Notes under the pieces: model-generated | The model's input: the letters and a program-made list of their open reading frames with translations, nothing else | Database searches by the model: none | Told to the model about the DNA's origin: nothing | Shown: one piece after another, positions 48,682 to 53,809 of the stretch | Layout of the letters: every line of letters begins with the position of its first letter | Numbering within the stretch: position 1 is the stretch's first letter | NCBI GenBank assembly: GCA_017654855.1 | Contig: CM030336.1 | Span: 3,906,001 to 3,970,000 of the forward strand | From: Podospora anserina | Lineage: Eukaryota | DNA: 64,000 nucleotides | Direction: 5' to 3' | Position numbers and translations under genes: made by a program

Positions 48682-49786
48682 ATTCTCCCAAAATGATCAA
48701 TGACGATCCCCTCAATAAAACGCTGGTTGATATACGTCTGTGGCTTTCTCCGGCGGCGGTTGAGACAGACCAGATGACAGGTAACGGTGTCGTCGGTTCA
48801 AGAATAGAGTTGTGACACAGGTCCCAAAGCCAAACCGCCTGGTAGTCTCCAAATGATGCGAGTGGGTGGTTCTTCGTTCGGGCGTGACAAGTCAAAATAC
48901 AAAATGTTAAGGAGACGAAAATAAAAGTCACGAGTCAAGAAAGTCGTGAGGCAACAAAAGTTGAAACAACACAGTTCAAGAATCAACCCGGCAGCACATG
49001 CCAGGCACCAAAATATACCTACCCTCTCCCTCCCCCAAACCAGGGAAGGGGGTGATGACTGGGACCCAGGAAATGGGGAAGGCATCAACAAGGTGGGGAG
49101 TACTAAATCTGGAGATACCCCGGGGAAGCTATTGATTGCATTGGTGGGGTAGTCTTGGCAGCACACTTTCGAAAAGTCGGTCTCGAACGACCCCTTTCTC
49201 TTCAGCTCAAAGATGTCGGTGAGGTGAAGCCCCCCTGACCCCTAACCTCGAAGAGATCTTGATTACATCGTTACAATGCGAGATCTCGCCATGTGCTCGG
49301 ATTATTTTCCTTTCATTTACACTACTGGTTGGTGGTCCCCCATCATCAAACGGTCCGTCATTTGTGGCAGATGGCTTGGCTATGTTTTCTGGTTCTTTTT
49401 AAACCACCCCCTAACGCCTGACATCTCCCTTCATGACCCAACCTGGCCTCATGATACATATACCCCAACCTTATCTACCTAATCCATAAAACTTACCTCA
49501 TACCTGCATACTCCATGTCTCCATTACCTACGTGGCCGTCGATCTAGACTTTTCATCAGATACCGAAAATTCCCCCGACACAAACAGTCGGTCAAGCAAG
49601 CAAAGCAGCCGGAATACGGCAACATCGGTGAAAAAGTTCCGAATTATATGTGTACGTGTGTGTGCGATTCATACATTACGCTTTCTATTGCCGCGTATTA
49701 TATATATTCATATATATATATATATTTCTAGAGAAAACCTATATAACCCACCCCAGCCTTTTTTCTACCTATACCGCATGCTTGCC

Positions 49787-52152
49787 CTACCCATAACTTC
49801 GTGACCTCCCACCGCCAGAGTTACTCGGATATCTCCTCCCGTTGGCCAGTGCGGGTATATACAGCGGTGCCGTTCTCCGCTTTGGAGACGGCAGCGAGTT
49901 GACCGCGTCCCACATCTCCATGATGCCGGCTCTGCGTGCTGGAAGCATGCTGTACTGCAGACTGTACAAGTTTCTGCGATCAAGCGGTGGCACAAATTTG
50001 CCTGTGAGTAGGCAGAGCAATACGCGCGGGGACAAGTAGTGTTTTCGGATGCGGTGTCCCATCTGAAAGTATTGATGGAACATGGCTTTGAAGCTCAGGG
50101 GTATGGACTGATCATCGTGTCAGTTTCAAAGCCAGGCAGAATAACCGAGAGATAAAAGCCTACCTTCAAGTGAATTACAGAAGTCGAAGGTATTGGTTTC
50201 GTCGTGTCATTAACGCCGTGTCTAATTTCTTGGGTATCTCGAAGTTCAAAACGAATTCCGCCTACAAACTCCAGTCAGCACACTGCAAAACCATGATGTA
50301 GAGCATAAGAACATACCTGGTAACCTCCCAGGGTCTTTGATCCTCAACATAAGCGCAAAAAGTGGAAAGTGATTCAAAAATGAAAGCATGGTATCGAAAA
50401 CCGCCTTGAGCGATATGATGACCATGCGGGCGATGGCAAAATTAAGGTAGAATACCACCACGGTTGGAAGCAAAAAGAAGAGCAAGGTGAAAAGAATGGT
50501 GCCAACGAGCAGCTGATCCAGGTCGTAGTCGCACGAGTCGATGCGGTTCCTCAGTACATTGTGCTTCTTGCCGCGAAATAGGTGGAAGAGCGAGATCAGG
50601 ATGTTGAGCTGCCAATGGTAGATCCTCGCAGATGCCAAGTAGAACGAATAAATGTGTATCGTCAAGATCGATGTCAGATCCGAGAACAAGGCGATTGGCA
50701 TGCTGGCTCCGGCAAAGCTGGAGAAACCAATAAACCAAATCATGTGAGGTAGAACCGGACGGAGAGTCTCAATACAACCTGTGAAGGTTAGTGACGGGAT
50801 GAGATGGGATGGTTGAGCACAGAATACTCACTGGACCAGTACTCAATAACCCACAGAAACAAATCCCCTAGAAACAACGCCAGTTCGCTGTTGAGCTTCA
50901 GCCCCGCTGGCCATCCCATGAGCCACGAAATACTGCTCTGCAGAGCCTCGACCGTGTACTGCGTCAAGAGGTGGCTGATCTCATCCGCAAGCCAGCTGGA
51001 ATTGTCGATGACGTATGACCCCAACGCAATACCAATAATAACATCATTGGCTACCAACCACAAGCTGTTGTAGAAGCGAATGTAGTCGGGATGGCTGGTG
51101 GTAACACTCTCCCAGTCGTTTTTCCTAAGCCGCAGTGTTACATACTGCATCGGCCAGTAGCAAAACTGCTGAAGCCGAATCTCGACTTGCTGGGCTGTGG
51201 CAGATATGTCCTTCAGCGCAGCATATTTTGGTCGAGCCCGCCACTCGAGCACCGTCAAGAGCACCTCGGCAGCTATCCGATGCGCCATCAACCCCATCAC
51301 GAACAGCTTCTTGATAACGGGCAGGACATAGACCGTCACCAAGTTCCATAGCCATACCAGAATTATGTCTCGCATGGTGGTCGCCGATTCAACAACCCTC
51401 TCAGACACACTCAAACTTCTCTTGGGCCTTGTTCCTATCCTCGAGACATTCTTCTGCATCAGCTTCTCGAGCTCCCGCGCCCAGTTGATTTGATTCACAA
51501 TTTTGGGCAGCGCTCTCTCTTTGGCCGACGGGGTCCGCTTGAATATAGAGTGTTGCTTCAATTTCTCGACCAGTTTTTTCTTCTTCTCCTTTTTGAGCCG
51601 CTCCTCTCGTTCGTCGGCCTCCTCGGCGCCGTCTGAAAGACCGATCCTGAATGTCTCATGCTTGTCGCCCAGGGCCAGAGCTATGGGACTCAAGGAGATG
51701 TACTGCATCCTTCCGGGAAAAGGTCGTTCGAAGAGTATGATCTGAATATTCGAGGCCCTGGCGCATGTGATTATCGGTACACGTATGCTCGGCCCGGTCG
51801 TCGCTCGGATCCATGATGGGTCGATCTGTACGTCGTCTGAAGTATTCGACAGTCCCAAAATATGCAGAGACGACTGCCCGCACAGCTCATAGATGCGGCT
51901 TACTGGATGGGGCGCGTTTCGCGTGAGGGTGCCAAGCTTCAAGGCGCTGTCGACGTTTCGGGGCTGGCCAAGATGTCAGCTTTCTCCATCCTTTTTTGTC
52001 GAGCGTTATAAACCCACCTCCACCTCTTCCAGAATGGCCAGCACAAACACGTCCAGGGCCGAGTTCCTCCACCCCACCACCACACCCCTCAGGTCGGATC
52101 GTGGCAGGTCGGCCGGCCAGAATATGCGCATCAAGCCATCATTCTCTGGCAT
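49787..52152 (-). CDS. gpi1: GPI-GlcNAc transferase component Gpi1 (PIG-Q); introns 51964-52017, 50779-50831, 50262-50316, 50108-50163
   Basis: MRIFWPADL...VVVGWRN, YIRFYNSLWLVANDVIIG, WLMGWPAGLKLNSEL, LFRGKKHNVLRNRIDSCDYDLDQLLVGTILFT and RLPGGIRFEL. All introns have canonical ends and restore the frame. Confidence 0.95.
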
Positions 52153-52177
52153 GACAGACAACAAGGCGCGAGGCCAC

Positions 52178-52598
52178 CTAGAAAGATCCCCGTCTTCTCA
52201 ACTGCTCTCTGGCCGATACGCCGGATCCGGGTGCTCGCGGGTGCTGGACAGTGTTGATCAGCAAAGTCTTTTCCAGTGTTGAGGAGGGGCAGGCGTCGTA
52301 CGAGAGTCGACTCCCGGGCTGCGAGACGTTCCACGGGTATAAAGATGAGCAGGAACACAAGTGAAAGCGCGGCAAAGCCTTTGGCGGCTCGAGACTGTGC
52401 AGACGTGCGCAGGTTAGATAACGAGGCGGGGGGGCTTAAGCGTAGACGAAGGGGGAAGAGGGGGTGGGCGAGCATTACAACCACTCCGTAATCCCAAGCA
52501 AAGATGGCAAGCTCATAGAGGCGAGTGACCAGGTCCCATCGGGCGGTGATGTAGCCAGCTACGAAGATGCCGAGTGTCAAGACGGAAAAGGGGTGCAT
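52178..52598 (-). CDS. Small 92-aa membrane protein of unknown function; exons 52598-52479, 52394-52302, 52243-52178; ends 25 nt before the gpi1 ATG
   Basis: MHPFSVLTLGIFVAGYITARWDLVTRLYELAIFAWDYGVV|SRAAKGFAALSLVFLLIFIPVERLAARESTL|HPRAPGSGVSAREQLRRRGSF*. Two phase-0 GT...CAG introns with CTAAC/CTGAT branch sites; hydrophobic segments at the N-terminus and in exon 2. Confidence 0.8.
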
Positions 52599-53330
52599 AG
52601 AATCGCGTGGTGGTGGTGGTGTGCTACCGGCGGAGCATGCCTTGGGGAGTTTGTCGTGGGCTGTGCGTGTGCAGTGTTGTTTGTTGATCTACGGATAGAC
52701 TTGTCGCGCTGCTGCTGCCAGGATACTGTGTATGTATGTGCCGGACGTCTTGTCTGTCGTCAGTTGACGGGACCAAATGCTGTGGCTGGGGGTACCGGTA
52801 TCTGGGGAAAACGAGGGCTCGGCGGGCGGGCGTGTGAAGCTTAAAGAGGCAAGCAAGTGGAGCTGGCAAGGTCGGATGAAGGCCGCCAAATTGCTTGGGG
52901 CTTGCGACGAAGCTTGTTCCAGACTCTCTGCGTCTCTTCGATCGATGGTGCATCTGATCATTTCAACAAAAAGCCCCATCACCGTGTCTCCAATCGCCAA
53001 TCAGAGCCCGCACATTCCCATGAACCGTGCCCCACTTATCTCCTTTTCCTGGCGGCGCGGGACAGACAGCCACCTGCTTTGAATCCGAGTCTCCGATGTG
53101 GTGGTCAACGACGGTGGCACAGTTTTCTATGAAGATGTAGACTTCCGTGTATACGATATGGACACAGGGGACTGTATTTACATCTGACACCAAACAGGTG
53201 TGTGGCAGATCACTGAGTGGGTGGGTAACATCAATAGACTCCAGGTTGAGGACCTATATGGCACCGTATACATTTTATTCTACACATGTACAAGTGATTA
53301 AGATCAGGATCATATGGTTTGAACCACTCT

Positions 53331-53809
53331 CTCTAAAAAAGCCTGTGTCAGAAAAGTCAGGAGTGATACAGAGGTGAAGGCACTTACACTTCTTCTTCCC
53401 CAGCAGCGTTGCATCATTCTCTTTAAAGTCTTCGCGGGCCTCGTCCAGCAACTTGTCTATCCCCCGTTCCTTGAGTGCGCGCTGTGTAATGTTAGCCCGT
53501 CATAAATCCACCAAAGTTTTCAGACGGTCCATCATACCTTCAAGCATACGTTGTACTCCTTAAACATGGTGGCGCATTCGTTATTGTCCGAGGTACTGAT
53601 CCCCCTCAGGTACTCTAAATATTCATCAGTCGTTCGTCTTTCCATGGTTGGGCAGGGCGTGCCTACTTTCGCTGTACCATTTCAAGAAGCAGGTGTCGTA
53701 GCGTCTGAGCAAATCAACCGTTAGCGGTGACCATGAATGATACACACGGCCCTATGAGACGGACTTACTCTTTCAGCTCGTTGCATTCTGGGGCAAGTGA
53801 TTGAGACAT
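53331..53809 (-). CDS. mdm35: Mdm35/TRIAP1 twin CX9C intermembrane-space protein, encoded by small exons and absent from the ORF track; introns 53705-53768, 53615-53666, 53482-53537 and probably 53333-53387
   Basis: Spliced translation MSQSLAPECNELKERYDTCFLKWYSEKYLRGISTSDNNECATMFKEYNVCLKRALKERGIDKLLDEARED... contains twin CX9C and the WYSEKYL signature. Confidence 0.93.

Follow-up and report, generated by a model that had tools for sequence, protein, structure and literature searches.

Can a single fungal mRNA carry two separate proteins, each with its own start and stop codon? The question is raised by a locus of Podospora anserina at which a small open reading frame (ORF) ends 25 nt before the start codon of GPI1, a gene of the glycosylphosphatidylinositol–N-acetylglucosamine (GPI-GlcNAc) transferase. 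The locus lies within a window of 64,000 nt (assembly GCA_017654855.1, contig CM030336.1, positions 3,906,001 to 3,970,000 of the forward strand). All coordinates given below are positions in this window, and all genes discussed are read from its minus strand. A preliminary description of the window had proposed a dicistronic or otherwise coupled locus or, failing that, a GPI1 transcription start inside the small gene. Herein, the former interpretation found support in selection on the small peptide, in the adjacency of the two genes in 73/73 informative loci, and in contigs that span both ORFs. On balance, we consider it probable, with considerable doubt left, that the small ORF and GPI1 form a conserved bicistronic mRNA of Pezizomycotina.

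The small ORF is a three-exon gene next to GPI1

The small ORF begins with the ATG at 52598. Exon 1 (52479..52598) provides codons 1–40, exon 2 (52302..52394) codons 41–71 (31 aa), and exon 3 (52178..52243) codons 72–92 (21 aa) followed by the TAG stop codon at 52180–52178. Intron 1 (52395..52478, 84 nt) and intron 2 (52244..52301, 58 nt) are both in phase 0 and have GT..AG ends. The sequence, the exon translations, and the spliced contigs described below agree on this structure, and the three-exon ORF with two phase-0 introns that had first been noted was right in coordinates, phases, and length. The spliced product of 92 aa is 100% identical to a 92-aa database protein of Triangularia setosa (P0022). 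Exon 3 encodes a C-terminal motif, SAREQLRRRGSF, which is near-invariant in the family alignment.

The spacer between the two ORFs (52153..52177) is 25 nt long and contains no ATG. Since 25 mod 3 = 1, the small ORF and the GPI1 ATG at 52152 are in different frames, as had also been pointed out. The GPI1 coding region (49787..52152) comprises five exons and encodes 715 aa, and its ATG has G at position −3. Its introns (52017–51964, 50831–50779, 50316–50262, and 50163–50108) were spliced in all four sequencing runs examined for transcripts. The two large GPI1 exon ORFs matched the Pfam family PF05024 with E values of 6.3e-39 and 5.2e-65 (134.4 and 219.9 bits; cut-off 22.2), and the two matches jointly span profile positions 1–265. 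The downstream gene is a member of the Gpi1/PIG-Q family, and 699 of its 715 residues are identical to the GPI1 part of the protein P0127.

Spliced contigs run from GPI1 into the small ORF

The RNA evidence consists of assembled contigs of public sequencing runs, none of which is recorded as RNA. Sixteen runs contained 0.71–0.81 of the sampled words, compared with 1.00 in six others, and these 16 were provisionally taken to derive from RNA. Contigs of four such runs from four studies (including X1, X4, X5, and X7) were compared with the window. The introns absent from the contigs were precisely those of GPI1 (four), of the next gene upstream (one), and of the small ORF (two), all of which have GT..AG ends. 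Because introns with such ends are missing from them, the contigs are of spliced RNA origin. Small-ORF intron 2 (joint 52243/52302) was removed in 4/4 runs and intron 1 (joint 52394/52479), which is partly retained, in 3/4 runs, far beyond chance.

In each of the four runs, one contig led from the 3′ end of GPI1 through the spacer into exons 3 and 2 of the small ORF. In run X1, a single contig of 3308 nt spanned 49750–52929, with adapter sequence at its end. For the upstream gene, the contigs stop at 52932–52938, a few bases away. Considering that the X1 contig and the contigs of the upstream gene end on either side of this point, the 5′ end of the transcript of the small ORF and GPI1 is probably near 52929. 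The contigs of the four runs contain no other joint by which the small ORF would be spliced to GPI1.

Metagenome contigs were also inspected. Lineages occurred with both intron-bearing and fully spliced contigs carrying the two ORFs (L041 versus L056–58, L014 versus L049/50, and L059 versus L029–32), and the contigs of L003, L009, L015, and L053 likewise lacked introns across both genes. Spanning RNA had been named in the preliminary description as the check on a shared transcript. One part of that expectation held, in that spliced contigs covered both ORFs in 4/4 runs and cDNA-like contigs did so in metagenomes; the other part, the presence of both ORFs on single molecules, is left unproven by contigs.

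The small ORF encodes a protein under strong purifying selection

With the unspliced 155-aa ORF as the query, 660 database matches were obtained at E ≤ 0.01. Among the 120 matches listed, 31 members of exactly 92 aa were chosen for the alignment; P0061, which lacks the start Met, and P0122, which has a retained intron, were left out. In these 31 members, 45 of the 92 columns are invariant, including most of residues 1–40 and the C-terminal SAREQLRRRGSF. The family is found in seven classes of Pezizomycotina, namely Sordariomycetes, Dothideomycetes, Eurotiomycetes, Leotiomycetes, Lecanoromycetes, Xylonomycetes, and, with Peziza, Pezizomycetes. The Peziza homologue is divergent and has 94 aa, and its C-terminus is the same as that of the family. 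The last 12 residues are the best-conserved part of the protein and are kept in Peziza and in one other divergent homologue.

Codons were compared among 43 metagenome lineages with a coding sequence (CDS) of 279 nt. Divergence at codon positions 1, 2, and 3 was 0.245, 0.099, and 0.581, respectively, and the median ratio of nonsynonymous to synonymous divergence (dN/dS) was 0.086 (99 usable of 200 sampled pairs, with dS saturated near 2.2). In codons 81–92, the divergence was 0.63 at third versus 0.05 at second positions, indicating that selection on the last 12 codons acts on amino acids and not on an RNA element. Residues 1–40 were as conserved as the C-terminus, with a second-position divergence of 0.05. 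In six genomes, identity to the window was 70–83% for the small protein and 56–66% for Gpi1 of the same genomes. The small ORF is a real protein under strong purifying selection, which answers the earlier call for a conservation test of the peptide.

Searches against known families gave no name for this protein. By hmmscan against Pfam-A at E ≤ 10, where the HMMER filters remove most matches above an E value of ~0.1, no family was found for four full-length members or for any of the 31 aligned members. The family models of PIG-Y (PF15159, as we take its accession to be), DPM2 (presumably PF07297), and PIG-P in Pfam-A had no match among the 31 members, in keeping with the initial impression that the peptide does not resemble PIG-Y/Eri1. 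An NCBIfam search with the small protein yielded nothing meaningful, a sequence search of the PDB with the family profile yielded a single insignificant match (E 8.7), and a Foldseek search of the PDB with the AlphaFold2 model found no match. The ESM Atlas held the protein's own Ascomycota clusters only, none of them named. A profile search of 1.84 billion representatives produced 268 matches at E ≤ 0.001, of which the best 150 were all strong and belonged to the same family.

The AlphaFold2 model of the small protein is a helical hairpin with helices at residues 6–36 and 39–71 (mean pLDDT 84), followed by a basic tail that was modelled with lower confidence. Hydrophobic windows were located at residues 3–19 and 43–66. 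The small protein is thus predicted to fold as a membrane hairpin of two helices, and its C-terminal tail is basic and probably cytosolic. A search of the PDB for a Gpi1/PIG-Q chain found none. The predicted complex of Gpi1 (residues 80–791 of P0127) with the small protein, run without alignments or controls, had a score of 0.00, which is uninformative on binding.

Intron 1 is in frame and stop-free in the window, and it was found unspliced in contigs of X4, X5, and X7 (3/4 runs). An isoform that retains it would have 28 additional residues at the turn of the hairpin. The length of intron 1 is a multiple of three in 25/27 lineages (the window and 26 metagenome lineages). This bias was not taken as evidence, because the best-80 tblastn ranking by which the loci were chosen favours frame-preserving introns, and because stop-free introns were not in excess (8 observed versus 8.6 expected).

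GPI1 directly follows the small ORF across Pezizomycotina

To survey the locus in other lineages, metagenomes were scanned for exon 1 of the small ORF. Out of 307 stretches matched in the scan, tblastn confirmed 231, and the best 80 were kept. In 73 of the 80 loci, GPI1 was the immediate downstream neighbour and had the same orientation. The remaining seven contigs end 0–80 nt past the stop codon of the small ORF, and GPI1 was therefore present in 73/73 informative loci. Spliced models were made for 72 of the 73 (L059, without a match to residue 1, was left out), and collapsing of CDSs with at least 97% identity gave 48 lineages.

In all 48 lineages, the small ORF has 91–93 codons, and its introns occur at CDS nt 120 and 213 only. 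The stop codon is kept in 48/48 (TAG in 35, TGA in 9, and TAA in 4). The gap between this stop codon and the GPI1 ATG is 6–63 nt long, with a median of 20 nt, and its length mod 3 is 0, 1, or 2 in 18, 16, and 14 lineages, respectively. A very short distance of this kind from the ORF1 stop to the ORF2 start is characteristic of bicistrons of the termination–reinitiation (IGG) type. The conserved adjacency to GPI1 that had been put forward for testing was thus confirmed over a narrow range of gaps. In contrast, the next gene upstream, which encodes a UPF0203 protein, was found on the same strand in just 12 of the 29 loci with enough sequence, at a distance of 600–970 nt.

Adjacency is also visible in annotated genomes. 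A search for longer proteins gave 257 matches; among the 120 listed, 108 carry PF05024 and represent the small ORF fused to GPI1, and these fused models come from six classes. In the 21 fused models that were inspected, the junctions lie at differing points, and the stop codon and the first GPI1 codons are cut away in various ways. Since the junctions differ from model to model, we regard the fused models as artefacts of gene predictors; they still prove that the small ORF and GPI1 are adjacent in their genomes. When the Peziza homologue was used in the longer-protein search, eight matches were obtained, none of them from Pezizomycetes. Among the 92-aa records that stand alone, many bear the name "phosphatidylinositol glycan class Q" or "gpi1" yet have no Gpi1 domain. 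The fused and misnamed public records are a systematic annotation error.

The small ORF has a weak start and GPI1 a good one

The 5′ leader of the transcript (52599..52929, ~331 nt by the contig ends) contains a single ATG, which is included in the contigs of all four runs. It opens a mini upstream ORF (mini-uORF; 52624..52638) of four codons (MLRR plus stop), with G at −3, whose end is separated from the small-ORF ATG by 25 nt. In total, 48 leaders were examined, that of the window and those of 47 loci for which 60 nt or more of upstream sequence were present (L005 was left out). In 36/48 leaders, a proximal ATG lies 12–40 nt before the small-ORF ATG and has a purine, almost invariably G, at −3. 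Among these 36 ATGs, 23 open a uORF of 3–6 codons ending 0–25 nt before the small-ORF ATG, and 13 open an out-of-frame ORF that overlaps it. In L008, L027, L029, L036, L041, L053, L056, and L070, the small-ORF ATG comes immediately after a TAG or TAA; in L036, L041, L053, and L056, this stop ends a 3-codon uORF, which touches the start of the small ORF.

The small-ORF ATG of the window is in a weak context, with T at −3 and C at +4. Position −3 is T in 44 lineages and C in 4, that is, a pyrimidine in 48/48, and position +4 is C in 48/48. At the GPI1 ATG, position −3 is a purine in 43/48 lineages. The combination of a weak ORF1 start with a good ORF2 start is that of bicistrons read by leaky scanning. 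The small protein has no internal Met codon in any of the 48 lineages. Their CDSs contain 46 out-of-frame ATGs, which lie at just four positions and without exception follow a pyrimidine at −3; for 45 of them, the reading frame closes upstream of the GPI1 ATG.

An Rfam scan of 49500–53700 found no family, and the RNA fold around the small-ORF stop and the spacer was no more stable than that of shuffled sequence (z = +1.59). These results give no indication of a structured element for holding or entry of ribosomes.

A model for the translation of both proteins

Under the bicistronic interpretation, one promoter with a start near 52929 would produce one mRNA. This mRNA would present, in order, the 4-codon mini-uORF in a strong context, the 92-codon ORF with its weak start, the spacer of 25 nt, and GPI1, whose ORF has a good start context. 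Most ribosomes would translate the mini-uORF first, resume scanning, and mostly pass the nearby weak ATG of the small ORF. Those that bypass it would cross ~300 nt of ATG-poor sequence and initiate at GPI1.

Gpi1 could then be reached by three routes. Ribosomes may leak past the weak small-ORF ATG, or they may reinitiate with delay after the mini-uORF, not yet being ready when they arrive at the small-ORF ATG. A minority would translate the small ORF, terminate, and in some cases start again 25 nt further on by termination–reinitiation. The small protein may work with Gpi1 in the endoplasmic reticulum (ER), for example, by being made and inserted beside it. Because the upstream product is a predicted membrane hairpin, the mRNA might be drawn to the ER, where the multi-pass Gpi1 would subsequently be made.

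Evidence against a shared mRNA and alternative explanations

Several observations weigh against the bicistronic interpretation. Contigs cannot show that both ORFs are on one molecule, and assembly may merge overlapping transcripts, a danger of which a Zymoseptoria study warns (10.1101/2023.04.26.537486). As contigs are no proof of single molecules, an internal start site of GPI1 has to be reckoned with. The depth of the contig with the leader and exon 1, relative to that of the GPI1 contig, was 0.89 in X4, 0.83 in X5, and 0.30 in X7, each depth being one averaged figure per contig and a poor measure; the ratio in X7 would fit additional GPI1-only transcripts or 3′ bias. In ten of the 48 leaders, the 57 nt before the small-ORF ATG contain no other ATG, and two more leaders offer just a weak one. 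The out-of-frame ATGs in the small ORF are barely fewer than in synonymous shuffles (46 versus 55 ± 5.4, with 5.4% of the shuffles as low). An ATG occurs inside the spacer in 27/48 lineages, with a purine at −3 in 26 of the 27. In 25/48 lineages (L001, L003, L005, L006, L008, and 20 others), it is located exactly 8 nt before the GPI1 ATG (ATG N5 ATG) and begins a mini-ORF, out of frame with GPI1, that runs across the GPI1 start and mostly has 3–9 codons, with more in four lineages; this ATG is absent from the window and its close relatives. A spacer ATG should compete with initiation at GPI1 and fits neither of the simple models; it may tune GPI1 initiation down. Finally, the 48 lineages are kin, their counts are not independent, and they were drawn from the best 80 of 231 stretches.

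Some of these points would suit two separate, overlapping transcripts, with a GPI1 start inside the small gene (in an intron or in exon 2 or 3) and an mRNA of the small ORF polyadenylated inside GPI1. The spanning contigs would then be assembly merges or rare read-through, in line with the inability of contigs to separate overlapping transcripts (the Zymoseptoria example) and with the low depth of the leader and exon 1 in X7. Moreover, the window has no ATG from CDS nt 85 to the GPI1 ATG, as a private GPI1 leader would need. However, separate transcripts leave unexplained the constantly short gap, the adjacency in every informative locus while the UPF0203 gene was lost from 17/29, and the weak start of the small ORF in 48/48 lineages. 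The depth ratios of 0.83–0.89 in X4 and X5 also count against them, as do the cDNA-like contigs elsewhere, which all begin upstream of the small ORF, in a sample biased by finding loci via exon 1. We regard this explanation as unlikely while still a serious competitor. A distinctly smaller chance is given to the small ORF acting mainly in cis as a conserved-peptide uORF, in which the nascent last 12 residues, within the exit tunnel, would control termination and the flow of ribosomes to GPI1, and the peptide, once released, would itself do little. Such a role is compatible with a bicistronic mRNA. Amino-acid selection in the leader of a main ORF, the mark of this uORF class, is present here, since the third- and second-position divergences place selection at the C-terminus on amino acids and not on RNA. 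The 12 residues before the stop are the best conserved, also in divergent homologues, and the stop lies 6–63 nt before the GPI1 ATG. Nevertheless, residues 1–40 are equally conserved and form a confident hydrophobic helical hairpin, which a tunnel peptide would not need, and 92 codons with two introns are long for a class that includes the arginine attenuator peptide.

That the small ORF is instead the true N-terminus of GPI1, joined to it by an alternative splice or by read-through, seems hardly credible. It is what the 108 fused models among the 120 longer matches listed would imply, but the 21 inspected join at idiosyncratic points, and the four runs contain no alternative joint. The stop codon is kept in 48/48 lineages, the spacer lengths are spread over all three values mod 3 (18/16/14), and the frames differ in the window. 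Exon 3, which is skipped or shortened in many fused models, is itself under strong purifying selection. An ordinary N-terminal GPI1 exon was rejected on account of the kept stop, the three frame relations, and the missing joint, and in-frame fusion, named at the outset as a result that would overturn the coupled-locus interpretation, is excluded as a rule.

Neighbouring features in the window

Short TA-rich and CA-rich simple repeats are located ~50–130 nt 3′ of the GPI1 stop codon (49650–49740, minus strand), in a region beyond the stop that is probably the 3′ untranslated region of GPI1. The contig of run X1 extends ~460 nt past 49750. On the other side of the locus, the next gene upstream (52932–53650, minus strand) is the UPF0203 gene, which is Mdm35/TRIAP1-like (PF05254) and has a spliced 55-nt intron at 53333–53387. 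In the Podospora models P0004 and P0025, which are named pig-Q, the UPF0203 gene is joined to the small ORF via an intron of ~720 nt. No support for this intron was found in any of the four runs.

Comparison with known systems

Murakami and co-workers reportedly described in 2005 a human bicistronic mRNA, PREY-PIGY. Like the locus studied here, it is said to pair a component of GPI-GlcNAc transferase with a small protein on a two-cistron mRNA and to have its downstream ORF translated by non-canonical initiation. In the human case, the two-helix small subunit PIG-Y is said to be encoded downstream, and its partner PreY to be unrelated to GPI synthesis. In Podospora, by contrast, the small protein is encoded upstream and the large subunit Gpi1 downstream, and the small protein has no sequence similarity to PIG-Y.

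A study on green-algal bicistrons (PMC11892635) describes leaky scanning with a weak ORF1 start, few AUGs, and a short inter-ORF gap, which is 14 nt in one example. According to the same study, ORF1 often encodes a small membrane protein (TOM22, OST4), ORF2 has a consensus start, and bicistronic loci have been conserved over hundreds of millions of years. The present locus resembles the algal loci, as characterized there (PMC11892635), in its short membrane-protein ORF1, weak ORF1 start, good ORF2 start, and short gap; the AUGs within its ORF1 are also few and weak, if barely fewer than in synonymous shuffles. It differs in being fungal, in the strong mini-uORF of most lineages, and in the strong ATG 8 nt before ORF2 in many. 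Closer relatives of Podospora also offer a parallel. In yeasts and filamentous fungi, according to PMC10352335, short intergenic sequences let ribosomes reinitiate once a full-length ORF has been translated. In the IGG1/IGG6 bicistrons of Glarea lozoyensis, the second ORF is read by ribosomes retained after the first (PMC10352335, PMC4471562). Those bicistrons share with the present locus an ascomycete ORF pair and a very short intergenic sequence. Unlike the pair described here, which is a housekeeping pair found across a subphylum, the bicistrons covered in those two reports either belong to the secondary metabolism of a single species or are synthetic.

In the delayed reinitiation of GCN4, cpc-1, and ATF4, a short uORF is translated, and ribosomes not yet reloaded pass over the next start and then reach a distal one. 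For cpc-1, this type of control is given as an example in PMC5487733, in which neither GPI nor bicistronic or dicistronic genes are mentioned. The locus has in common with these systems a very short uORF closely before a second ORF whose start is, as proposed here, bypassed. In GCN4, cpc-1, and ATF4, however, the bypassed ORF specifies a throw-away peptide, and here it specifies a conserved membrane protein of 92 aa.

At the protein level, the closest systems are Eri1/PIG-Y and the DPM2 homologue Yil102c-A, which PMC11294708 connects to GPI synthesis at its first step. They are of similar size to the small protein, and a comparable membrane architecture of two helices is predicted for them. 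The two-helix character of PIG-Y/Eri1 is seen in the small protein by its AlphaFold2 model and hydrophobic windows, a weak likeness common to many small proteins. In contrast to these similarities, no sequence similarity of the small protein to Eri1/PIG-Y or DPM2 was detectable with Pfam in 31/31 members.

Possible function and significance

The operon-like linkage to Gpi1 throughout the subphylum is the sole basis for proposing a role of the small protein in the GPI-GlcNAc transferase, of which it may be a partner. The protein ends in RRRGSF, whose RRxS motif we take to match the consensus of basophilic kinases such as protein kinase A (PKA) and to resemble arginine-based ER-retention signals and C-terminal 14-3-3 switches; this is a lead only. 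The yeast GPI-GlcNAc transferase complex cross-talks with Ras/cAMP-PKA, according to PMC11294708.

A more specific proposal is offered as a tentative one, which we hold to be possible and, in its entirety, doubtful. The small protein would be a Pezizomycotina-specific subunit or regulator of the GPI-GlcNAc transferase, made together with Gpi1 for insertion side by side in the ER, and a counterpart of Eri1/PIG-Y. Its RRRGSF tail would act as an ER-retention signal and PKA/14-3-3 switch that ties GPI synthesis to cAMP-PKA signalling. The leader would set the ratio of the two proteins, which could shift under eIF2 stress.

A literature search of articles without their supplementary tables yielded no account of a small ORF preceding GPI1, nor of a bicistron that includes GPI1. 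A long-read survey of Fusarium graminearum reports 321 polycistronic loci and required ORFs of at least 100 aa; because of this requirement, a 92-aa ORF would escape it. In long-read surveys (10.1101/2023.04.26.537486 and the Fusarium survey), fungal polycistronic transcripts are mostly described as species-level, low-abundance read-through. The present locus belongs to a known kind, the eukaryotic bicistrons; what is new here is the protein family, its conservation across a subphylum, and the three-tier leader.

The fused and misnamed database records at this locus are open to correction, and the locus is a good test case for the translation of two proteins from one fungal mRNA. To our knowledge, no earlier native bicistron is conserved across six Pezizomycotina classes. 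If the bicistronic interpretation is true, this would be the first such case, with adjacency in Pezizomycetes lying outside this count. The fungal cell wall depends on GPI anchoring, and the step in which Gpi1 participates is under study as an antifungal target. If the proposed partnership is also true, an unnamed partner of Gpi1, present throughout the subphylum, would provide a new handle on this step.

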